Part shown: in pieces, positions 34,980-50,589 of the stretch
How the letters are laid out: each line of letters opens with the position of its first letter
Numbering within the stretch: position 1 is the first letter of the stretch
NCBI GenBank assembly: GCA_963836435.1
Contig: CAWIJI010000011.1
Location: 9,678-73,677, forward strand
DNA: 64,000 nucleotides
Direction of reading: 5' to 3'
From: an uncultured Acidobacteriota bacterium
GTDB lineage: Bacteria > Acidobacteriota > Terriglobia > 20CM-2-55-15
Position numbers and translations under genes: made by a program
Notes under the pieces: model-generated
Database searches by the model: none
The model's input: the letters and a program-made list of their open reading frames with translations, nothing else
What the model was told of the DNA's origin: nothing

Positions 34980-35640
34980 CTACCCCTCGTCAAGAGGCTT
35001 CAAGCGGAGGGGGACACCTGCTCGAATATCCAACATCTCCACCCACTTGCGAATCTCGTCTGCCGCCGCCTCCAGCGTCGTTGTTCCCGACTTTCCCACC
35101 TTCAGCGAATGGTCGCCACGCTCCGTCCACACCAGAGTTGCGCGGCCGCCGATCCGCTGCACCACCGTCTCCAGCAGGGTACGCTCCGCCAGGGTATCCC
35201 TCGTGCCGCTGAGGAACAGCATGGGCAGCTCTATCCCGTAAAGGTGCGCATCCCGCAGCTGATCCTGCTTGCCGGGCGGATGTAACGGATACCCCAGGAA
35301 CACGAGCCCTGCAACCCCCTCTGTGCTGCCGGCGATGTAGGACGCCACCCTTCCGCCCATCGACTTTCCCCCGATGATGATTTTTTCAGGTCGATGTGTT
35401 TCCGCGACTTGTGCCACGACCTCTCGGTAGAGCGCCTGCATCCTGGGTTGTGGATCCGGAATCTTTCGTCCCTGCCGCATGTACTCGAAGTTGAACTGCA
35501 CGGACAGAAAACCGCGCTTCGGCAGCGCTTCGTGAAAGAATTGCATGAAGGGGGAGTCGATTCCCTGGCCTGCACCGTGCGCCAGGATAATGGCGACGTT
35601 CCCGTCCCAGTGTTCAGGTGCTGCTGCGCTCCAGTTCATC
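34980..35640 (-). CDS. alpha/beta hydrolase (dienelactone-hydrolase-like fold)
   Basis: Nucleophile elbow GGKSMGG, with downstream Asp and His positions. Confidence 0.75.
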
Positions 35641-36313
35641 GAACCTCCTGCAGGCCGGCAGTCTTCTCGAGAAATCTGCGGAACTGCGATCCTGCCGGCA
35701 TCCAGCGGTCTATCAGCACCCGCGCCTTGCGCGGCGACATCTCCGCGCCTTCTCTCCACAGGTCTTCAAACAGCAGTTCCGTTGCGCCGACTGCCAGCGA
35801 CGGGAAAGCCCCGTCCTCGACTTCGCCAAACCCGACAATCAGGAATCGCGTGAAGAGTTCCTTCATTCCACGGGAGTAAGCGCCTTCGTGGAGCTTACCC
35901 CGAAGGTCCGTGAGCGCTTTCAGTTCTTTCGTTGACAGAGGCGAATTGTTTTCCAGGACCTCGAACAGAACCCGGGCCGTTTCGGAGAGTTCGTGGCGGG
36001 GAATACGCGCCGTCCGCGCCAGACAGAGCAAGGCCGCGAACAGGTCGCGTGAGAAAAACGTTGCGCGTCCCTGATACCACTTGGAATAGACGACCTCGCG
36101 GCAGTCCGAAAGGCTTTTCATCAGTTGCCACATGTTCGCGACCTTGTAGTCGCTGTCCTGATTCCATTCCCAGATCATTTCCGTTTTCGGGTAGAACTGC
36201 GACCATAGCGAGTTCGGCAGACTTTTGTTATTCAGCGGGAACACCAGCAAGGCGCCGTGGGTTTGGATGTGCGAGATTGCCGCTGGAGCGCTCCGTGGTT
36301 GGCCTGGTTTCAT
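35636..36313 (-). CDS. hypothetical protein (co-transcribed with the alpha/beta hydrolase)
   Basis: 225-aa ORF with a 4-nt overlap with the downstream gene. No recognisable motif. Confidence 0.4.
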   Translation of the reverse strand: MKPGQPRSAPAAISHIQTHGALLVFPLNNKSLPNSLWSQFYPKTEMIWEWNQDSDYKVANMWQLMKSLSDCREVVYSKWYQGRATFFSRDLFAALLCLARTARIPRHELSETARVLFEVLENNSPLSTKELKALTDLRGKLHEGAYSRGMKELFTRFLIVGFGEVEDGAFPSLAVGATELLFEDLWREGAEMSPRKARVLIDRWMPAGSQFRRFLEKTAGLQEVR

Positions 36314-40515: not shown

Positions 40516-40588
<73 letters not shown>

Positions 40589-40614
40589 TACACTTAAAGA
40601 TCAGACTGGGTTTC

Positions 40615-40635
40615 GGGGTACCACTGGGGTACCCC
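40615..40635 (+). other. perfect palindromic hairpin GGGGTACCactgGGGTACCCC 27 nt after tRNA-Lys
   Basis: Seen directly. May act as a terminator for the tRNA or lie at the boundary of the downstream island. Confidence 0.4.
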
Positions 40636-40677
40636 GTGGCCGCTATTGGGATTGAAGCGCGGCAGAGTAAGGCATTT

Positions 40678-41073
40678 CTATCTGACGATGAGTTCAGCGG
40701 CATTTGCGAGTTCTGTCGCAAGCTTCAACCAGCTGCCCTGATCCTGAGGAGGCCAATTTACGATGTTTCCGTGGCGTTCATGGGGGCGCGTATCGGGCTC
40801 GACAGTCAGTCCACGATTGAAAACTTCAGATGCTGAAAGATCGGCCCGTGCAATTATCGGTTTTCCGCGATGAGGAGCGACGTAGTCATCTCCGAGTTTC
40901 CAAATCTCCCCGTCACCTAGTTCATTTGTCCGATAGATAGATAGACTGAGATTCGCATGCGGAGGCGTGAAAGCGTTGAACTTCACTCGCTTTTTGACGG
41001 CAGAATACTTCGACCTCTCGTCCAAATATCTTGTGAGGCGCTCTTCAGCTCCGACGCTGCGCAGATCGATCAT
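40678..41073 (-). CDS. hypothetical protein (third gene of island operon)
   Basis: 131-aa ORF, 6 nt downstream of the previous gene. Has a ...PHERHGNIVNWPP motif. No confident family call. Confidence 0.45.
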   Translation of the reverse strand: MIDLRSVGAEERLTRYLDERSKYSAVKKRVKFNAFTPPHANLSLSIYRTNELGDGEIWKLGDDYVAPHRGKPIIARADLSASEVFNRGLTVEPDTRPHERHGNIVNWPPQDQGSWLKLATELANAAELIVR

Positions 41074-41079
41074 CTCGGG

Positions 41080-41592
41080 TTACGCCTGCTTGAACCGGTT
41101 CAGCCTCGAAAGGGCATCGATGATGTGTCCCGGAATCGAGTCGTTGAATGCCAGTACCCCGGATATCGCGTTGGGAGTCCCCTCAAGGCTTGCATACGTG
41201 AGCGACTGGCGCCCTGCCATAGCAACCACGAGGAGGTGATTCTTCTCGACGTACCATTCCAGACCAATCTGACCGTTTGGCGAAGGAACAATCTCTGGCA
41301 TCTCATTCATCGAAGGAAGGAGACTGATGAACCGGGATGCTTCCCGATACGCGTCAACTGATATGGGAGCAGCTCCCTCACCGTCCCAGTTTTCCATGCG
41401 GCATTCCACAAAGACTGTGTTGAGTCTCCGGAGCGTCTCAGATTTTGGGCTGAGGAGCACAGCTCGGGCGACGGCCTCGGTGTACTGCCGAACCAATAGC
41501 TGCGCTAGATGCTGCGACTCTACGCCAATACCCGTGTTTGCGTAGTAGCCGAAGCCTTGATAGTTGCGGTGCTCTGCAATGGCTGGACTCAT
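41080..41592 (-). CDS. hypothetical protein (second gene of island operon)
   Basis: 170-aa ORF with a 4-nt overlap with the TIGR04255-like gene. Confidence 0.45.
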   Translation of the reverse strand: MSPAIAEHRNYQGFGYYANTGIGVESQHLAQLLVRQYTEAVARAVLLSPKSETLRRLNTVFVECRMENWDGEGAAPISVDAYREASRFISLLPSMNEMPEIVPSPNGQIGLEWYVEKNHLLVVAMAGRQSLTYASLEGTPNAISGVLAFNDSIPGHIIDALSRLNRFKQA

Positions 41593-42353
41593 TCGAACAA
41601 CCTCACAGCCTTTTCAGTTAGGCTTGCGAAAAAAATCTTGTTTTTGAAGTTCCGGAGACCATCAAGCCTTGGCCAGATCGATGCGTCTCCGGGGTCGAAG
41701 TCGGATTGAATCCTCGTATCAATATCAAGAATGACATTTACCCGGTCCGGTTCCGTTACTCCCTCAAAAGCCTGAGTTATCGTTGCCGTGGCTGTAGGCT
41801 CTTCATTCTCAATCGTGACTCGTGTCACGAACCGCGAGACCTGTTGCGGCAATCCATTCGGAACAATTGGGGCCGCGACTAGATACTCGCCAAATGTATC
41901 GAACGGCGTAGGAAGTGCCAGATCATTGATGAATCTCACACCTAGTTTGGTCACCTTCGTAGGGTTTGTCGCCTCCCGATATAGATGCCACATCTCTTCG
42001 GTCAGCTTTCGAAAGTCCTCCCATTGTGTGTAAGGCCGGAGCCAATTGAACGTAAACCCATCCTTGCGAAATTGGACTGCTCTCGTCTTATCGGCATTAA
42101 GACAACGGAACCCCAAAATGTTCTGCTCGAAGCGACCTTGATTCTCTTTCAGGTCTAATTGAAACTGGCCCTCCGCGACATTGTGAACATTCGGATATTC
42201 GGCCGACACCCGTTCAACAAGGGACTGCAACAATTTCAACTGGAGAGCGCGGTCCGCGTCTTTAGGAAACCCGACGAAAATATCAATCAGGGCTTCTCTA
42301 ATGGGAGCGTTGTTTAGGTGATGGGGCTCACGCATTTTGGGCTCTTCTATCAA
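41589..42353 (-). CDS. TIGR04255-like family protein (conserved protein of unknown function)
   Basis: N-terminal NAPIREALIDIFVGF resembles the TIGR04255 N-terminus. 254 aa. Confidence 0.5.
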   Translation of the reverse strand: MIEEPKMREPHHLNNAPIREALIDIFVGFPKDADRALQLKLLQSLVERVSAEYPNVHNVAEGQFQLDLKENQGRFEQNILGFRCLNADKTRAVQFRKDGFTFNWLRPYTQWEDFRKLTEEMWHLYREATNPTKVTKLGVRFINDLALPTPFDTFGEYLVAAPIVPNGLPQQVSRFVTRVTIENEEPTATATITQAFEGVTEPDRVNVILDIDTRIQSDFDPGDASIWPRLDGLRNFKNKIFFASLTEKAVRLFE

Positions 42354-42775
42354 ATCTTCGACGTTTCAACTAAGAGAACGTGTACTGCCTGGGACGGCAA
42401 AGCCTCGCAAGGACCTTATTGAGTGGTTCGTGCTGTTCATTGAACCCCGGATCCGCGAAGGTCGCCGGTTTCCAACGGGGGCACTAGGGTTCAGTTTCAT
42501 CACTGATGATCCCCTTTCTGTATGACGGTTGCAACCAAGGCGTGATGAAGCCTGACCTTGATGCTCAATCATTTATTACCCGCATGAGGGACAGAGTAGG
42601 TCATGGGCTCTGCCACAATTGGCAACATTGCAATACTTCACATATGAAACTGTCCTCACATGGGGGAACAACCCTCGTGTTTTTGAGCATAGTCAGCAGG
42701 TCAATAGCTCCGAGGTTATGTTGCCGGTATACACGGGCAGCCGTACAACCAGAGCCACGAGAATCAGAGGTCCCT

Positions 42776-43261
42776 ATGGCAAACGAAACACCTCCTCCGG
42801 AGTTGTCGTTGGACGACATCTACCGAAAGTTCGGAGAGGTCGCTGAAGCTGCGCAGCTACTTGAACTCGAACTGGGAACTTTCTTGCTCGGAATTCATGG
42901 GGCCGAATCGAAGCTCTACCTGCTCGAAAACCAAGATCAAGCCATCGAAATCCACGACTTCATTAACAAGAGCACGTTAGGGCAAGTTCTGAAAAGAATC
43001 GGCCGCAAGACAGATGCCGAAGCCGTGGAGCGGCTATTCGCCAAGGCACTTGCCGAACGTAATCGGCTGTCCCATTCCTTCTATCGGCACCACAATTTCC
43101 GACGGAACTCTTCGGAAGGCCGCAGGATCATGCTTGATGATTTGGAAGCGATGCACGAGACAATACTCGACGCGTGGAAGGTGGCCGCCGCCCTGTCAGG
43201 TACAGACTTGGAAGCGTTCAAAGGATTCGTGCTGCCATCGCAGCACGTAGACTTGGATTGA
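42776..43261 (+). CDS. HEPN-like all-alpha protein (Rx4H motif ERNRLSH), paralog 1
   Basis: Start set at MANETPPPEL, since the upstream part of the long ORF is Cys/Arg-rich read-through. Helical throughout, with the candidate catalytic motif near the C-terminal third. Confidence 0.45.
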   Translation: MANETPPPELSLDDIYRKFGEVAEAAQLLELELGTFLLGIHGAESKLYLLENQDQAIEIHDFINKSTLGQVLKRIGRKTDAEAVERLFAKALAERNRLSHSFYRHHNFRRNSSEGRRIMLDDLEAMHETILDAWKVAAALSGTDLEAFKGFVLPSQHVDLD

Positions 43262-43360
43262 CGAGCCGCTGGAAGAATTGCCTCATTTGAGATAATCAGC
43301 AACATGCCGCACTCGACATACGGCGATAGAATCCCACTAACGATTCCCTTCGGAGGTTGT

Positions 43361-43693
43361 ATGAATAAGAGTATGCTTCCCAAATTGGTTGGTTCCCATC
43401 TACGAGTCCGGCCAATCTTGCGCCGATTCGATGAGTTCGGGGAACTTTCGCCTGAGGATGATCGCTGGCACGTCCAATACGCGGACGCCGAGGGAATCCG
43501 CGTATTGAATATTCGAACGCACCATGTCCTGACGATTCCGCCCGACCACATCCATGAGTTTCGTTCCGACAGTTCACCCTACTTTCCGGGAATAGCAACG
43601 GGCTTCCTGATGTTGCACAGCCAAGTTTGGCTTCAGGGTAGGAATGCTGGCCTCGAACCTCTGGATTGGGCATACGAACCGCGCAACTATTGA
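43361..43693 (+). CDS. small hypothetical protein between the two HEPN-like paralogs
   Basis: About 110-aa ORF from MNKSMLPKL. No recognisable motif. Confidence 0.3.
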   Translation: MNKSMLPKLVGSHLRVRPILRRFDEFGELSPEDDRWHVQYADAEGIRVLNIRTHHVLTIPPDHIHEFRSDSSPYFPGIATGFLMLHSQVWLQGRNAGLEPLDWAYEPRNY

Positions 43694-43704
43694 GGTACGC
43701 CTCA

Positions 43705-44154
43705 ATGAGCAAAGATGCGTTCTTCCTAAACGTCGCCCATGCACTTTCCGGTTGTCAACTGGTTGAGCAGGAGCTAAAGCTCTACATCACGGAGGCACTT
43801 GATTTCGTCAGACAGCGACTTGACGACAGAATGCCTTTCAAGATGTGCGGAGAGAACTATGCAAACTCGTCATTGGAGGGGCTGATTTCAATATTCCAGA
43901 AACTCACAAGAAATGTTGAACTCGTCAATCAACTGGGAAAGTTCAAAGAAGAGCGCAATTTTCTTAGTCACAAAGGAATCGCAGCTTGCTTCGACTACGA
44001 TGGTGAGTTTGACTACCCTACGGCGCTTGACATGCAGCCCCGGTTAGATGGGATAAAAATTGAAGCAGAAAGACTTCGCCATGCCATCCACGAGGAAGGA
44101 AGCAAAATTGAAAGGTGCCGGCCGGCGGATTTTGATGACGTGTCGGAACAATAA
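43705..44154 (+). CDS. HEPN-like all-alpha protein (Rx4H motif ERNFLSH), paralog 2
   Basis: Start MSKDAFFLNV, with GAGG 8 nt upstream. Collinear similarity to paralog 1 (...LGQVLKRIGRK...AERNRLSH versus ...LEGLISIFQKLTRN...EERNFLSH). Confidence 0.45.
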   Translation: MSKDAFFLNVAHALSGCQLVEQELKLYITEALDFVRQRLDDRMPFKMCGENYANSSLEGLISIFQKLTRNVELVNQLGKFKEERNFLSHKGIAACFDYDGEFDYPTALDMQPRLDGIKIEAERLRHAIHEEGSKIERCRPADFDDVSEQ

Positions 44155-44214
44155 GATCACAGAACCCTAAACGGCAACTCCGCCTCTGCGAGTGCTGCTT
44201 CGCGAATCTTGCGA

Positions 44215-44646
44215 TCAGATGAGAACGCCCGCTTTTGAATCTCGATGTCGGATTCGAGTCGAACCGCAAGCGAAGTTAGTCCGACAACAAGGACGGAGCA
44301 ACCGAGAGCGTTTGCTCTTCTCGGAAAGCTCATGCAGCTTGGGATCTGATTTCTCAAGGAAAGCAAAAAACTCTTCCTCCTCCTTCGGTCGCATACTCGC
44401 CGGTTTTGCCTCACCCGACATACTTGCCGCACTAGGACGCGCAGCAATAGATTCCTCGACAGCAGCAACGTGCTTGCACTTCTGCCCTTGGCGATACTGC
44501 GACGACGGACAGGAGCAGGGCGGAGTGCTGCGGAGGTCTATGAGATAGCGAATGCCAGGTCCCTTCTCTGAGGCGACGCTGTAATCACCCTCTGGCTCCT
44601 CCCGAACATCGGGGTTCCACGTTGCCGTACTCGCCTTAGTTGACAT
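44215..44646 (-). CDS. small SWIM-type zinc-finger ORF (CxCx(n)CxH). Boundaries are uncertain.
   Basis: CSCPSSQYRQGQKCKH matches the SWIM pattern. The C-terminal part may continue in another frame (44157..44468). Confidence 0.35.
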   Translation of the reverse strand: MSTKASTATWNPDVREEPEGDYSVASEKGPGIRYLIDLRSTPPCSCPSSQYRQGQKCKHVAAVEESIAARPSAASMSGEAKPASMRPKEEEEFFAFLEKSDPKLHELSEKSKRSRLLRPCCRTNFACGSTRIRHRDSKAGVLI

Positions 44647-45456
44647 ACTTACCTCCCCGCTCCATGACACGTCGGCAAACCGCTTCCGTTGTGGTTCTCC
44701 GCTCCCGTGCGCTCCGCCGCAAATACACCTTGCACCATGCCTGCACTCCATCACGAGAGGATTTGTTCGACCAAAACTCGGAGCGCGGCTGCGGCTTGCC
44801 CCGTTTGTGGCAGCGGGAATTCGTGCACACCTTCTTGAAGGCCGAACTCCATGCCGGGTGTAATTGTTGTGGAACAGGCTCTTGCACTGGACTGGACGGA
44901 GCAGAAGCGGTCGTGTGAATGCCTAACCACGAACCACGCGCTACAAAAACCACAGGGCCGAAACGCCACGTGGACAAGCTTTGGCGCCGGTTGTTCAGCG
45001 TCGACTAATTTTGTCCTGCGACGACAATTAGAATCCTGGTCGTGGTTTGTTATTAATCGTCGCCGGGCTTGTGAGTAACTGTGGAAAACGCAGCAGGGTT
45101 TTCCAAACAGCGTTGGAAATCCCCAACGGAAGCCTTCGGCAATTTTTTCTTGATGATTTCCACACGCTGCTTGAAAAAGCCTACGCAAAAACCGCTTCGG
45201 CTTTTTCACAGTTACACACAGGCCCGGCGGCGGATAAATAAACAACTCACGGGTTACTTTTAAAATGAGTTGCCGACATCCCCCAAAGTTACATTTTCAA
45301 ATGAATTGATAGAGTCCGGCCCTTTTGCGTGTGTGGGGAATTTTGGGGGAAGCATCCGCCTTCAGGAAGCCCGTGAGTGTGCCTTCCACGAAATCGTTAT
45401 CGGGAACGTCAGGACCGTAACGACATCGATAAAGAGAGTCCACCGTGAAGCGCACT

Positions 45457-47134
45457 CTAGGAGCCTGTAGGGGATAGATTTCTAGATTTCGATCAAAAAC
45501 GGGACCAGTGTTGACGAGCGGGCAGGTAAAAGACGAAGGCATGACCAAATGCTTTGTTGATGACGAAATCGATCAGATATTGATGATGCCGCCGTCGCTG
45601 CACGATTGGCTCCCGGAAGACCATTTGGCGCGATTCGTGGCGGATTTGGTGCCGAGCCTGGATCTGTCGGCGTTCTACGCTTCCTATGAAGAGAAAGATG
45701 GACGAGGCAATGCTGCCTATCATCCGGTGATGATGGTGCGGTTGCTGGTCTATGGCTACTGCATCGGAGTCGTGAGTTCGCGGCAGATCGAGAAACGGAC
45801 ATACGAGGATGTGGCGTTCCGGTATTTGAGCGCGGATGAACATCCGCACTACACGACGATCAACGAATTTCGGAAACGGCATTTGAAAGCATTGGAGGGA
45901 TTGTTCCTGCAGGTGCTGGAGCTATGTCAGGCAGCGGGTCTGGTGAAGATGGGGCATGTGGCCCTGGACGGGACGAAGAAGCAGGCGAACGCCAGCAAGC
46001 ACAAGGCGATGAGCTATGGGCGGATGGGAGAAGCGGAAGAAAGGCTCAGAGCGCAGGTGAAGGAACTGCTCGATCGCGCTGAAGCCGTCGACGCGGCCGA
46101 AGATGAAATGGAGCGGCAAGGTTACAGCGACAAGTTGCCTGCGGAATTGGCGCGGCGGGAGAGCCGGTTGAAAAAAATCGCCGAGGCGAAGGCGGCGCTG
46201 GAAGCGGAAGCGCGGCGGAAAGCGGAAGAGAAGAAAGCTCAAGCCGAGGCGCGAATTGCCGAGCGGCAGCAGCAGGAGCAGGAGACGGGAAAGAAGATCG
46301 GCGGGCGGGCGCCGCAGATTCCCGATCCGGAGCAGGCCAAGCCAGAGGATTGCGCGCAACGCAATTTCACCGATCCTGACAGCCGGATTATGGTCGACGG
46401 AGCGAACAAAGGCAGCTTCGTACAAGCCTACAACGCGCAGATCGCGGTGGATGCCGAAGCGCAAATCATCGTTGCCGCCGACGTCACGCAGGAAGTCAAC
46501 GACAAGCAGCAATTGGCGCCGATGTTCGAGCAGGTCGAAAAGAATACAGGAGCCAAACCAGTGGCGGGCAGCGCCGATAATGGTTATTGGGCTCCAGAAC
46601 AAATTGCCGACAAGCACGTCGAAGGCATCGATCTCCACATAGCCACCGGGCGGGATAAGCATGGAGCATCGGAGCAAACCGCGCCGTCAGCGGAGTCCGC
46701 AAAAGCGGCGACAGCTCTGGAGCAGATGAAGCAGAAACTGCAAACGGAGGCGGGGCGCGCCATTTACAAAATGCGCAAGGCGATCGTCGAACCAGTGTTT
46801 GGCCAGATCAAGGAATGCCGTCATTTTCGACGCTTCAGTCTTCGAGGCTTGGAAAACGTCAGAGCGGAGTGGAAACTTGTCTGCGCGACACACAACCTTC
46901 TGAAGTTATTTCGATCGGGACGCGGATTTCAGGCTGCGGCGGCATGAAGAGGATGCAGGAACCTCAGAAAACATGATGAGACCGAACTTCTCTCGCCAGT
47001 CTCCCCGTGTTCTCGTGCGTCAAGCCTCAAACGCAATGTCGACGGTTCCCGAACGGCGACCTGCGGAATTTTTCGACACGGAAAATTTCGAATTTTGGGA
47101 ACGGCGACCTGCCTTATCCCCTACAGGCTCCTAG
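45457..47134 (+). mobile_element. IS1182-like insertion sequence (about 1.68 kb) with perfect 20-bp terminal inverted repeats
   Basis: Left end CTAGGAGCCTGTAGGGGATA at 45457-45476. Right end TATCCCCTACAGGCTCCTAG at 47115-47134 is its exact reverse complement. Single transposase ORF inside. Confidence 0.85.
45541..46947 (+). CDS. IS1182-family (IS5-superfamily) DDE transposase
   Basis: N-terminal ...LPEDHLARFV... region, a central coiled-coil and a DDE_Tnp_1-like C-terminal half. About 468 aa from MTKCFVDDEI. Confidence 0.8.
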   Translation: MTKCFVDDEIDQILMMPPSLHDWLPEDHLARFVADLVPSLDLSAFYASYEEKDGRGNAAYHPVMMVRLLVYGYCIGVVSSRQIEKRTYEDVAFRYLSADEHPHYTTINEFRKRHLKALEGLFLQVLELCQAAGLVKMGHVALDGTKKQANASKHKAMSYGRMGEAEERLRAQVKELLDRAEAVDAAEDEMERQGYSDKLPAELARRESRLKKIAEAKAALEAEARRKAEEKKAQAEARIAERQQQEQETGKKIGGRAPQIPDPEQAKPEDCAQRNFTDPDSRIMVDGANKGSFVQAYNAQIAVDAEAQIIVAADVTQEVNDKQQLAPMFEQVEKNTGAKPVAGSADNGYWAPEQIADKHVEGIDLHIATGRDKHGASEQTAPSAESAKAATALEQMKQKLQTEAGRAIYKMRKAIVEPVFGQIKECRHFRRFSLRGLENVRAEWKLVCATHNLLKLFRSGRGFQAAAA

Positions 47135-47226
47135 GTCTAGGAACGACGCGGCTCTGACAGCTTGACTGCTCGGGCGCCCGATTCGCTTATATACCGCTCC
47201 GTCAATGGCATACCATTCTGAGTGCC

Positions 47227-48051
47227 ATGTACAGCCAGCTCGCCGCGCTCTCCAGTGACCACGTTGTGCTTGATCTGGGCAGTGGCAGTAGCAGCTTTCA
47301 CTACGAAACATGTCCCGCAAAGATCATTGCGATCGACGTATCGTCTGACAGAACGCCCGTCATGCTTTCTGAACGCGTGGCCTTCATTCATGCAAATGCA
47401 GCTTCTCTCCCACTGGCCGACAAATCAGCGGACGTCGTTATCTCTCACCACACGTTGGAGCATTTCGCCGACTACAGGGGGGTACTGTCGGAAATATATC
47501 GAGTCTTGAGACCTGACGGTTGGTTATGGATTGCGGTGCCAAACGGTTATGGTTTCGACGATTTTCTTTACCGGTGGGTGTTCTCGGGGGGTGGGCATGT
47601 CAACCGGTTCAGGCATGATGCACTCGTTACCGAAGTGGAGGAAGTAACGCGACTTCGGTTGCGCGATGAGTGCGCGTTGTTCAGCGGTTTCGTTTATCTG
47701 AAAAAGCCGACGGCGCGCGAGCTGCAACACTACCCGCCATCAGCCAGGCCTCTTGGAAATATTCCGGACGGTTTTTCCCACTTTGGCTCTCTCGCGTTGA
47801 ACGGTGTTACACGCATTGCCGACAGACTGTTTGGGTCGCGTCTCAGCCAATATGGCTGGGGATTGTTATTTTCGAATGCCGGATTGAATGCCTCGGGGCT
47901 TCCTTCGTACTTCAATGTTTGCCGCAGCTGTGGGTCCGGGCTCTCCTATCGCTTGCTGAAACGGAAAACTCTCTTTGGAGTCGGTCTTTATCATTGTCCT
48001 TACTGCAAAGTGCCCAACGTTTGTGTCGTTCCACCGGATTCTTGTGAATAA
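47227..48051 (+). CDS. class I SAM-dependent methyltransferase (Methyltransf_11-like)
   Basis: Motif I VLDLGSGSSSF, ...VISHHTLEHF..., LRPDGWLWIAVPNG. Confidence 0.8.
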   Translation: MYSQLAALSSDHVVLDLGSGSSSFHYETCPAKIIAIDVSSDRTPVMLSERVAFIHANAASLPLADKSADVVISHHTLEHFADYRGVLSEIYRVLRPDGWLWIAVPNGYGFDDFLYRWVFSGGGHVNRFRHDALVTEVEEVTRLRLRDECALFSGFVYLKKPTARELQHYPPSARPLGNIPDGFSHFGSLALNGVTRIADRLFGSRLSQYGWGLLFSNAGLNASGLPSYFNVCRSCGSGLSYRLLKRKTLFGVGLYHCPYCKVPNVCVVPPDSCE

Positions 48052-48138
48052 CTGCGATGAAAATGCTGAGCTCGTTATGGCGGGCGTAACGAGAATTTTG
48101 TTCCCGCAAGGCATAACGGGCCAGGCGCCGAAGGCGCC

Positions 48139-48400
48139 CTGGAGTTTAGAAATTTTTGAGTCTGAGCGGGCGCGGAGACACGAGGTTACGTCTCCGGTTT
48201 GCAGGTTCGTCCGCAAGGCGATGGCGACGTTGAAACGTGAGTCTCAAGCACGCCGGAGGCGTGCTGAGAATTTAGCCCCGGGTTAAGCGAGCGAAGCGAG
48301 CGCAACCCGGGGTTGCCGTAACGGAGATGTTCGCACCCCGGCAGGGGTGCAGGGATTCCTCGCACCCCGGCAGGGGTGCGAAGGCCGCTCGTGAGATGAG
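48139..48400 (+). repeat. MITE-like hairpin repeat family, copy 3 (with extra ~100-bp module after the left TIR)
   Basis: ctggagtttagaaattttt ... [100-bp module also present inverted at 60247-60352] ... cacgccggaggcgtgctgagaatttagccccgggttaagcgagcgaagcgagcgcaacccgggg ... gtgagatgag. Confidence 0.8.
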
Positions 48401-48455
48401 CAATCTTCCTGAGGATATCCGACTCAAGCGTTCCTGACGGATAGTTCAAGCGTAA

Positions 48456-49175
48456 ATGATATCTTCCGGCAGAATGATGAGGCGAACGGCTCGCATCTGT
48501 TGGATCGTGGCAATAGTTGCGCTGGCAACCCTGCCCTTCCTGGGCCGCGCTGTTTTCCTGGATGAACATTTGTTGCTCCTGCTCGTGCGCGGAGTTTTGA
48601 CGAACGGCGTGTCGGCCCATCTGGATGTGCCGACTATCTTCTTTGGAATTTCTCTCGAGAATCTGTCTTCGCATGCGCATCCGCCAGTAGCCGAATACTG
48701 TCTCGCCCTGCTCTACAAATTGTTCGGCGGCTTCAATGGGCCGGGATTCCGCATGGCGTTTTCTCTTTTTCCTCTTTCCGCCGCACTTGCCTTCTATGAT
48801 CTCGCTCGGCGTTTCACGCGCACTCCTTTGATCGTTACCCTGGTTTTTGCTGCCAGTCCCGCTTACTTCGTGATGAGTTCCACTTTGATGGCGGACATTC
48901 CCTCTCTGAGTTTTCTGCTCATTGGCTTCGCTTTGTATCTCAGGGGATCCTTATGGCCGGCTTCATTCTCTTTTGCACTCGCGCTCGGCACGACCTATCC
49001 GACTTTGATTCCTTTTTGTTCTCTGCTCATCTGGATGGCGTTGAATCGGCGTCCTGCTCGAGAGTTTGCGGCGCTGGCCGCTGCTCCCCTACCTCTCGTG
49101 GCGTGGTTGGCCCTGACCGCATTTCATTTCCATCAGATTCCACTTCTTCTTCCAAGTCGTCATACAGAGGGATGA
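48456..49175 (+). CDS. polytopic membrane protein resembling the N-terminal half of a GT-C glycosyltransferase (PMT/ArnT-like); possibly truncated
   Basis: DE motif in the first loop (FLDEH) and about 7 TM helices. Only 239 aa, against 450-550 aa for typical family members. A downstream +ORF (49351..49815) might be a displaced C-terminal part. Confidence 0.4.
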   Translation: MISSGRMMRRTARICWIVAIVALATLPFLGRAVFLDEHLLLLLVRGVLTNGVSAHLDVPTIFFGISLENLSSHAHPPVAEYCLALLYKLFGGFNGPGFRMAFSLFPLSAALAFYDLARRFTRTPLIVTLVFAASPAYFVMSSTLMADIPSLSFLLIGFALYLRGSLWPASFSFALALGTTYPTLIPFCSLLIWMALNRRPAREFAALAAAPLPLVAWLALTAFHFHQIPLLLPSRHTEG

Positions 49176-49584
49176 CAACCGACAGTTTCATGGAATTTCT
49201 GGTCGCTGTTTGGAAGCAGTCATCCCGCAATCTTTGGTGGCCTTCCGCGGACGTTCAATACCTTTCTGAGAGTGAGGGGTGGCGTATCCTTTCAGCAGGA
49301 TGCTTGACCTGCGTGACTAAAAGTAAGGAGACGCTTGTCGGTGGGCGTCGGTGATGGAGCTGTTTTGTTGCGGCCAGAGTGACTGGAGCCGCGACGGTTA
49401 CGCCGATCAGAGGATAGTCGTACCAAGGACATTGTTGGATGCGATCGCTTCCTTTGGTTATGTGAAGGACTGGTACCGACCACCGAAACGCGGCTTTATC
49501 GAGGTACTGAGGAGGCTTTGCCTTATGCGACCTTCGGCTCGGAAGATGCTCGCCGGTCTCTCTCCCAGCGAGTTTACCGGGCCG

Positions 49585-50037
49585 CTACTCGTTGACTCTT
49601 TGAAGCTGCTTAACGTCCAGCAGGTCCTTGTCCCGGCCGGACGCTTTCTTGTTCGCAATCAAAGCATCGAGACCAATGTAATCGACGGTATGTCCACCAA
49701 GATCTCCCTGAACCCGAGACGTCCACGCCTGTTCGAAGGACAAACCAGAGATCATCGTCAAGATGTCGATCCTATTGGGTGGCCGGCCAAGCTGAATCAT
49801 TCGGCCAGGCTTTGAAAGGTCTTCAATCGTGAGGGATAACGCTCCGAAGCCAAAAGCCGCAAGGGCATCCATTACTCTTGCTGCATTTTCTGACGTCGGT
49901 CTTACGAGGATATCGATATCGCCTGTATAGCGGGGATGTCCGTGAAATGCCACGGCGTGCCCGCCAACGACAAGAAACTCAACTTTCCTGGAGATCAGTA
50001 ATACGACAAACTCGCTCAAATCGGTCTGCAGCGCCAA
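49585..50037 (-). CDS. minimal nucleotidyltransferase-fold protein (MNT-like)
   Basis: Signature VVGGHAVAFHGHPRYTGDIDILV (GGx9-13 DxD). Confidence 0.6.
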   Translation of the reverse strand: MALQTDLSEFVVLLISRKVEFLVVGGHAVAFHGHPRYTGDIDILVRPTSENAARVMDALAAFGFGALSLTIEDLSKPGRMIQLGRPPNRIDILTMISGLSFEQAWTSRVQGDLGGHTVDYIGLDALIANKKASGRDKDLLDVKQLQRVNE

Positions 50038-50170
50038 GAGACCTCCGGTAGTTTTCGATCAGGTTGAGGAGGATGTCGACGCGTTCTTTGGGTGTAAGAC
50101 TGGCATAGTACTCAGCGTCGGCGCGTTCCGCTTCTTCAAAGCTTTGAAAGACTCTGGCTTCGCGTTCCAC
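49979..50170 (-). CDS. small helical protein upstream of and overlapping the MNT-like gene (possible cognate partner)
   Basis: 63-aa ORF (FQSFEEAERADAEYYASLTPKERVDILLNL...). Overlaps the NTase start by 59 nt. Confidence 0.35.
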   Translation of the reverse strand: MEREARVFQSFEEAERADAEYYASLTPKERVDILLNLIENYRRSLGAADRFERVCRITDLQES

Positions 50171-50589
50171 AAGGAAAATCTAACACGGTTCGTCGATAAT
50201 CGGCGCACTCGAGGGGACGCGCCTTACTGCAGCCACGGCTCGGAGCGGCCCGGATTCCGTGCAACCTGAACGATGGAGCGCCCCCGGAAAAACCCAACGG
50301 AATACCTCTGATAAGACACGGCGAATGCCCGGAGCACTATCAAAAAACCGCCGATCCCTAACTTGCGTGCCCATGAGGGCAAAGATTTCCCGCAAGGGCG
50401 CATCAGTCTGAACGCAGTCAGCGCAAAGGGGCGGCGAGAATGCCGCGTCGTCGAAAAGGTAGAAGTCGAAGCCGCGAGTGACGACCGTCGGTGAGCCGCG
50501 CCGTTCGTGCCAACCATCCGAAGGCTCCTTCGATCGCGTCTGCCGGCGGGTGGAAATACCGCAGCGTGATCGTAGAGTACAATTTCATC

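Follow-up and report, generated by a model that had tools for sequence, protein, structure and literature searches.

Tripartite toxin–antitoxin and abortive-infection modules that include a toxin of the ADP-ribosyltransferase (ART) fold are already known. In toxin–antitoxin–chaperone (TAC) systems, a conserved chaperone acts as the phage sensor and is combined with interchangeable toxin–antitoxin units, among them one with the ART toxin CmdT; in CmdTAC, this toxin is accompanied by the antitoxin CmdA and the SecB-like chaperone CmdC (bioRxiv 10.1101/2024.02.24.581848; PMC11618068). Here, we describe a three-gene cassette in a 64,000-nucleotide (nt) stretch of contig CAWIJI010000011.1 from an uncultured Acidobacteriota bacterium, which as a whole we call the window. 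The cassette is opened by a protein of the TIGR04255 family (P1), followed by an acidic protein (P2) and closed by a small basic one (P3). With moderate confidence, we read it as a self-contained, horizontally transferred toxin–antitoxin-type (abortive-infection-type) module in which P3 would be an ART-fold toxin, P2 its neutraliser and P1 a hub. New here are TIGR04255 as a conserved component, the promiscuity with which it is paired, and an unclassified clade to which P3 belongs, which appears to lack the catalytic glutamate of ART enzymes. The genes and their junctions, the latter read directly from the sequence, are as follows (aa, amino acids):

41589–42335, minus strand: P1, TIGR04255-family protein, 248 aa, opens the cassette.
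41080–41592, minus strand: P2, acidic middle gene, 170 aa.
40678–41073, minus strand: P3, basic last gene, 131 aa.
41589–41592, minus strand: ATGA, in which the stop of P1 and the start of P2 overlap by 4 nt.
41074–41079, minus strand: 6-nt spacer CCCGAG between the TAA of P2 and the ATG of P3.

The cassette shares with TAC systems its three genes, a conserved third component combined with exchangeable toxin–antitoxin units, and an ART-fold toxin among the warheads. It differs in that the fold of P1 matches phosphagen kinases, the TATA-binding protein (TBP) and S-adenosylmethionine decarboxylase (AdoMetDC), with no SecB among the matches, and in that no short motif common to the gene-2 products was found; because P1 is not SecB-like, TAC systems are an analogy of logic and not a family to which the locus belongs. 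Among other ART toxins with dedicated partners, we considered DarT–DarG, RES–Xre (ParST, MbcTA), Tse2–Tsi2, Tne2–Tni2 (type VI secretion) and TreX–TriX (Rhs), and P3 matches none of the Pfam models of these families. Compared with such toxins, P3 is smaller and without the catalytic glutamate, P2 is by sequence neither a macrodomain nor an Xre-type helix-turn-helix (HTH) protein nor a known immunity fold, and the TIGR04255 gene has no counterpart. Nothing relevant is mentioned in the NetFlax paper.

The layout of three minus-strand open reading frames (ORFs) with 4-nt and 6-nt junctions, on which the original prediction was built, is borne out by the sequence. Counted from an in-frame TTG at 42353, the P1 frame covers 41589–42353 (254 aa); the ATG at 42335 is the likely start, because all homologues start at the equivalent methionine and the publicly called gene for the identical protein encodes 248 aa. 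The ATGA overlap is a predicted translational coupling of P1 and P2. Of 90 distinct homologous trios from other organisms, 75 keep it, and the P2/P3 junctions of the 90 mostly fall between −4 and +13 nt. No promoter-like sites were found at the locus, terminator-like sites are no more frequent there than in shuffled sequence, and an Rfam search returned a tRNA-Lys as its sole RNA match.

The P1–P2–P3 trio is a real, horizontally transferred unit. Its arrangement recurs far beyond what chance would give: all 90 trios have the genes in this order, as do 53 of the 56 metagenome loci retrieved through P1, counted only where at least 950 nt of downstream sequence was available. A second survey, based on P3 and carried out as a motif scan that took a single genome from each species, yielded 48 loci that span Nitrospirales, Desulfobacterales, Brocadiales, Nitrospinota, Burkholderiales (Rubrivivax), Hyphomicrobium, Bacteroidota and others. 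In 47 of them P3 is immediately preceded by P2, and P1 stands ahead of P2 in 31; P2 and P3 are thus a small adjacent pair with partner-specific co-occurrence, the gene arrangement that characterizes type II toxin–antitoxin systems. The co-occurrence analysis that had been suggested as a check therefore speaks for the cassette, and the competing expectation that homologues occur singly fails, because the three families co-occur across phyla. Even a Roseateles homologue of P1 that is only 35% identical to that of the window still precedes P2 and P3.

Comparison at the DNA level separates the unit from its surroundings. The closest relative, whose P3 is 76% identical, lies on an unrelated contig that resembles the window only across the three genes (42348–40685, 70.5% identity), with differing flanks. 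There, the same trio sits amid ribosomal-protein genes and a PIN/ribbon–helix–helix pair, and DNA similarity to the window stops 13 nt ahead of the P1 ATG, with no shared upstream DNA. Copies in decay were also seen. At L004 (7263–10833), which a tRNA-Ser precedes by about 370 nt, P1 is frameshifted and split, and an inserted ISAZ013-type transposase and a further gene separate P2 from an intact P3; L042 holds fragments of all three genes; and at L046 (1349–1747), the sole P3 found without P2, the first ~19 codons, including an invariant arginine, are replaced. Such a pattern is as expected if an unguarded P3 were harmful, with the individual cases best taken as anecdotes.

P3 belongs to a large unclassified family that is absent from Pfam and NCBIfam. 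A word-index search found just two relatives, whereas an exhaustive HMMER search returned 1789 cluster representatives at E ≤ 1e-3, of which 656 reach E ≤ 1e-10, so that the family comprises at least 1789 clusters at 50% identity; among the best 150 of the 1789 matches, lengths range from 93 to 200 aa and are mostly ~120–155 aa. None of 71 family members matches PTS_2-RNA, RES, DarT or other ART models of Pfam (E ≤ 0.1) or any NCBIfam model, and P3 itself has no match in PHROGs and no sequence match in the PDB. The consensus of the 71 sequences reads E..TRY...F......RVK..AF.P.......SVYR...L...EIW.IG...VA..R.K...ARADL.A..V....L...P...PHPRHANI.GWP. Its most conserved block, PHPRHANIxGWP, corresponds in the window to PHERHGNIVNWPP, the very segment of the last gene that had been singled out as looking conserved. 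Within P3, H98, R100, H101, N103 and W107 are invariant in an alignment of 19 sequences, conservation of H101, W107 and P108 reaches at least 90% across the 71, and the conserved polar residues are E11, R15 (strand 1), S45 (strand 2), R76, and H98, R100 and H101 (strand 5), with E11, R15, S45, R76 and H101 counted as invariant.

The predicted structure of P3 is of high quality (predicted local distance difference test score (pLDDT) 97.0, predicted template modelling score 0.90) and shows the ART core fold. Its structural neighbours are almost all ART-fold proteins, with Tpt1 on top, together with HopF, Tse2, OspC3, Tne2, RES and DarT, and, at lower Z scores, TreX, pertussis-like toxins, Scabin, NarE, MbcT, ParT and others. 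The structure search proposed as a check of the original prediction thus leads to no metabolic family and places P3 among ART-fold toxins, and the earlier statement that none of the three proteins is assignable no longer applies to P3. Enzymes of this fold use an R-S-E or H-Y-E catalytic triad, in which the arginine or histidine lies on strand 1, the serine or tyrosine on strand 2 and the glutamate on strand 5. P3 has the invariant R15 on strand 1 and the invariant S45 on strand 2, positions that would fit an R-S-E enzyme, whereas strand 5, the usual site of the glutamate, appears to carry H98-x-R100-H101 in its place. P3 is probably the effector of the cassette, a minimal basic ART-fold enzyme that most likely consumes NAD+ in poisoning the cell, whether through ADP-ribosylation of nucleic acid or protein or through destruction of NAD+ itself.

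It is also conceivable, though in our estimate somewhat unlikely, that P3 does not ADP-ribosylate macromolecules at all, and is instead an NAD+-degrading enzyme of the RES, MbcT or Tne2 type or, like Tpt1, a phosphotransferase with RNA ends as its substrate; the logic of the cassette would be unaffected. The failure of the family to match the RES, PTS_2-RNA and DarT models argues against this, and its strong basicity (median isoelectric point (pI) 9.05) is no less compatible with a nucleic-acid substrate than with NAD+ hydrolysis. Compared with Tpt1/KptA in particular, P3 is only 10% identical, lacks the RNA-binding lobe of the two-lobed, ~180-aa Tpt1, leaves the PTS_2-RNA model unmatched, and is found in a mobile, toxin-like cassette rather than in a housekeeping context.

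P2 is the acidic counterpart of P3 (family median pI 5.1), and this pattern of a basic P3 and an acidic P2 holds across both families. An alignment of 35 relatives reveals a variable N-terminal third and a conserved C-terminal domain of ~110 residues with the consensus NWDGxGA...LP....PEI.PEP.G.I.FEW...YAG.FG...HG. Conservation is limited to structural residues, W, G, P and A, with no conserved polar positions, which argues that P2 is a binder and not an enzyme. We presume it to be a binding domain that serves as neutraliser or adaptor of P3; in the proposed mechanism, it would be the cognate partner that binds P3 and holds it inactive. Searches with P2 in Pfam, NCBIfam, PHROGs and the PDB sequences returned nothing meaningful, and a Pfam scan of the 35 family members was also empty.

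The profile searches that had been recommended link P2 and P3 to a single pair of models, the candidate defence pair PDC-M32A/B of PADLOC. PDC-M32A is matched by 29 of the 35 P2 relatives, only over positions ~270–334 of 375 (best E 9e-6), and by P2 of the window with E 2e-5 across 65 profile positions; PDC-M32B is matched by 28 of the 71 P3 relatives over nearly its full length (best E 5e-9), and by P3 of the window over 95 of 123 positions with E 0.028. The genes also follow the same A-then-B order, and no other PADLOC family is consistently matched. However, PDC-M32A has 375 aa, of which only the C-terminal ~65 positions match P2, and PDC-M32 lacks a TIGR04255 component. P2–P3 therefore appears to be a distant relative of PDC-M32A/B and not a member by PADLOC standards. 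That PDC-M32A might be a fusion of TIGR04255-like and P2 domains was considered and found no support, as no member of the P1 family matches it. In the literature searched, PDC-M32 is only listed as a match in a Sinorhizobium prophage (PMC12429752).

The resemblance of P1 to TIGR04255, which had been noticed at its N terminus, extends over the whole protein. Against the hidden Markov model of the family, P1 scores 120.1 bits (curated cut-off 30; E 1.4e-34) across profile positions 2–252 of 252, a full-length match that places it in TIGR04255, and public sources label its homologues 'TIGR04255 family'. NCBIfam describes the family as 'sporadically distributed'; no paper mentioning it was found in the literature searched. 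P1 has no match in Pfam, PHROG or PADLOC, and other members of its family likewise match no PADLOC model. PDB sequence and profile searches with all three families returned noise only, the match to 9hnh being repetitive and confined to a short helical stretch. In an AlphaFold2 model of P1 built from 34 homologues (pLDDT 89.9), a beta-alpha-beta(n)-alpha unit occurs twice and forms a sandwich with a single long antiparallel sheet, TBP-like or phosphagen-kinase-like, which establishes the fold class at the level of a model. The top Foldseek ranks are taken by an AdoMetDC prozyme and TBP, with E values of 5e-5 to 5e-4 and TM-scores of just 0.27–0.43. The invariant residues are mostly charged and lie on successive strands (E14, D18, R134 and D204), with Q88, R90, R130, R172, Q188 and E191 nearly so, which suggests that this side of the modelled sheet is a ligand-binding face.

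What P1 does may be approached through the genes that follow it. In the three metagenome loci that break the P1–P2–P3 order (L145–L147), P1 is followed by an unrelated gene of ~150 aa, whose product is helical, and then by a DUF7689 protein recognized by Pfam (135–148 bits):

L145, 3481–3909: DUF7689 third gene.
L146, 1636–2109: DUF7689 third gene.
L147, 5142–5618: DUF7689 third gene.

These DUF7689 proteins keep a YNCIAWA...H pattern that looks like that of a Cys/His hydrolase, and no paper on the family was found in the literature searched. Their P1 proteins are 47–49% (L145 and L146) and 43% (L147) identical to the nearest ART-linked ones, and are thus about as near to ART-linked P1 proteins as these are to P1 of the window. 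On the Vibrio plasmid CP063527, a TIGR04255 gene is followed by a 179-aa gene and, last, a zeta-toxin-family kinase (Pfam 46.8 bits); on Acinetobacter and Rhodococcus plasmids, gene 2 is an HTH or 'transcriptional regulator' gene, with a third gene in Acinetobacter as well. No significant similarity links the third gene of the Acinetobacter cassette to that of the Methylocystis one, and the Acinetobacter protein has no informative PDB match. A shared N-terminal motif through which the non-homologous gene-2 products could dock onto P1 was sought and found no support, being present in 1–2 of 10 of them and in 5–8% of control ORFs.

Several of these cassettes lie in contexts of genetic conflict. 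The Methylocystis plasmid copy has an 'abortive infection family protein' just upstream (L150, 2009–3232), and the P2-like Ralstonia phage YO139_2 (L062, ON170239.1, Peduoviridae) carries a TIGR04255 cassette at the end of its genome, from 35550–36263 onward in a record without annotation. In this phage and in two IMG/VR prophages, P1 is followed by a gene resembling P2 and by a very divergent P3-like gene that keeps R...S...H (hhalign E 0.003), and both prophages encode an AbiTii-domain protein directly downstream (134.8 bits; L065, 1738–2727, and L066, 5684–6673). VapC, PIN, ParE or Eco57I genes neighbour other copies. Taken together, the gene contexts point to a recurrent scheme of a constant first gene and a variable pair, of which the last member is toxin-like wherever it is recognizable. 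Because P1 is combined with differing gene-2 and gene-3 pairs, its job should be independent of the toxin chemistry. P1 may thus be a conserved hub that evolution has joined to different 'warheads', namely an ART pair, a zeta-kinase pair and a DUF7689 pair, and by analogy with the SecB-like chaperone of TAC systems it would most likely sense or control the release of the neutraliser.

Two other roles for P1 have to be weighed against that of a hub. It could be an enzyme, a very divergent nucleotide-binding protein of a phosphagen-kinase or glutamine-synthetase (GS)-like fold that modifies the product of gene 2 or gene 3, for instance by phosphorylation, as in tagging by McsB, or that binds or makes a small-molecule signal. 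We regard this as unlikely: the conserved charged sheet would fit such a role, but identity to such kinases is 2–9% with TM-scores of at most 0.3 normalized to the query, Foldseek puts TBP and AdoMetDC higher, and there is no sequence match in Pfam, the PDB or PADLOC. Furthermore, modification of the partner would need a common substrate feature, yet the gene-2 products are non-homologous and have no detectable motif in common.

Less probable still is that P1 is an autoregulator of transcription for a two-protein toxin–antitoxin pair, an omega-like protein that would place a TBP-like saddle on the operon promoter. The omega–epsilon–zeta systems do have the same order of a conserved first gene, a neutraliser and a toxin, and the Vibrio plasmid cassette even ends with a kinase of the zeta family. 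However, omega is a ribbon–helix–helix repressor of ~70 aa whereas P1 is an acidic alpha/beta protein of 248 aa, and the toxin candidate of the window has the ART fold and is not a P-loop kinase. The acidity of the P1 family (median pI 5.6, 74% of members below 6) and the invariant acidic residues on its sheet are unlike a DNA-binding saddle, a repressor would be redundant where gene 2 is itself an HTH regulator, and the window and its closest relative share no conserved upstream DNA.

Several observations weigh against reading the locus as a toxin–antitoxin-type module with P1 as its hub. A different first gene of ~219–250 aa precedes P2 and P3 in 14 of the loci, all with a longer P2 (190–243 aa), which means that P1 is not indispensable to the P2–P3 pair:

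L010, L012, L016, L029, L030, L032–L036, L038–L040 and L043 (for example, L033, 2693–3352): alternative first gene, in Desulfobacterales and Bacteroidota.

This gene exists in two subtypes without significant similarity to TIGR04255, and might correspond to P1 in function or else be related to it at an extreme distance; a direct comparison by hhalign gave E values of 0.014–0.22 with probabilities of at most 3%, and we do not claim it as a divergent TIGR04255 protein. The role of P1 is argued from gene context only, since the protein has no similarity to SecB or to a known sensor and its structural matches are weak. No recognizable DNA-binding or known antitoxin domain was found in P2, and PDC-M32, which is itself only a defence candidate, is matched weakly by P2 and P3 of the window. 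Several copies of the cassette stand isolated among housekeeping genes, and no relatives of P3 were found by tblastn of plasmid and phage collections or by a motif scan of IMG/VR.

These last two points, together with the rank of the housekeeping RNA 2'-phosphotransferase Tpt1 as the top structural match of P3, would also suit an ordinary cellular function outside conflict, such as RNA repair in which two accessory proteins assist a Tpt1-like enzyme, but this is highly improbable given the patchy spread over unrelated phyla with only three genes common between loci, the low-GC (guanine plus cytosine) island with its insertion sequence (IS) element, the degraded copies, the joining of the same first gene to a zeta toxin or DUF7689, the prophage and plasmid cargo copies beside Abi genes, and a sole library match that is a defence-candidate pair.

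The defence or addiction role that the original prediction had considered plausible is thereby supported as a prediction. We thus return to the cassette as a toxin–antitoxin-type module, for which gene linkage, the fold and conserved polar residues of P3, the charge pattern, modular swapping and mobility are all observed features, and from which we infer the toxicity of P3 and its use of NAD+, neutralization by P2, and a sensor or regulator role for P1. A more far-reaching version can be put forward only tentatively. In it, TIGR04255 would be a structurally new, universal class of hub for polymorphic toxin cassettes, able to stand before neutraliser–toxin pairs of unrelated chemistry such as ART-fold, zeta-kinase, DUF7689 and other pairs, and possibly a phosphagen-kinase-like nucleotide-binding trigger sensor that fills a SecB-like role by an unrelated mechanism, and P3 would represent a new clade of minimal, glutamate-less, NAD+-using toxins.

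In either version, TIGR04255, a family assigned by annotation pipelines and carrying no function, gains a context, that of a constant first gene behind which the other two are exchanged as a pair. Its cassettes point to a conserved module for control or sensing that is new among toxin–antitoxin or abortive-infection systems, with the TAC chaperone as the nearest precedent, and P1 could be used as a search handle for new toxins through guilt by association. The uncharacterized DUF7689 acquires a toxin-like context from the same cassettes, and the P3 family would give the ADP-ribosyltransferase superfamily a minimal, glutamate-less branch. Tools that annotate defence systems and toxin–antitoxin systems could take up the cassette together with its variants.

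The surroundings of the cassette in the window fit an acquired island, with the following features:

40516–40588, plus strand: tRNA-Lys(CTT), found by ARAGORN and by Rfam (RF00005, 71 bits), outside the operon.
~40589–50200, no strand: low-GC island carrying the cassette, approximate extent from composition.
42776–43261 and 43666–44154, plus strand: two proteins of ~160 aa, each with an ERNxLSH (Rx4H, HEPN-type) motif.
45508–46947, plus strand: IS1182-family transposase within the island, 47–49% identical to annotated IS1182 transposases on plasmids.

The island is bounded on the left by the 3' end of the tRNA-Lys, and the P3 stop codon follows 89 nt after that end. From that end the GC content drops from 59.4%, the value of the flanks on both sides, to 53.6% in the island (~40.6–50.2 kb), with 52.1% in the cassette itself, so that the position at an island edge given in the original prediction holds. 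No integrase was found in the island, nor did a search find a direct repeat of the tRNA-Lys 3' end, and therefore no att sites delimit it. The same prediction had placed the operon beside a tRNA and HEPN-like genes. The tRNA is there, and the label of the neighbours rests on their motif: the two proteins align with each other around ERNxLSH only and match neither Pfam nor NCBIfam, and a PDB search with the 42776–43261 protein was empty. This protein matches phrog_12893, whose function is not known, with E 1e-20.

Two minor observations concern the same region. About 2 kb from the cassette, the minus strand encodes a SWIM zinc-finger protein at 44215–44754 (Pfam 23.4 bits, cut-off 19.6), and a 'SWIM zinc finger family protein' (L061, 6408–6689) lies ~2 kb from the TIGR04255 gene on plasmid pTB1 of Thermus brockianus; the proximity of such a protein to both TIGR04255 genes may be coincidence. 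Finally, the self-complementary 20-nt sequence TCGCACCCCGGCAGGGGTGC is present in two perfect copies at 48331–48350 and 48360–48379, with starts 29 nt apart.

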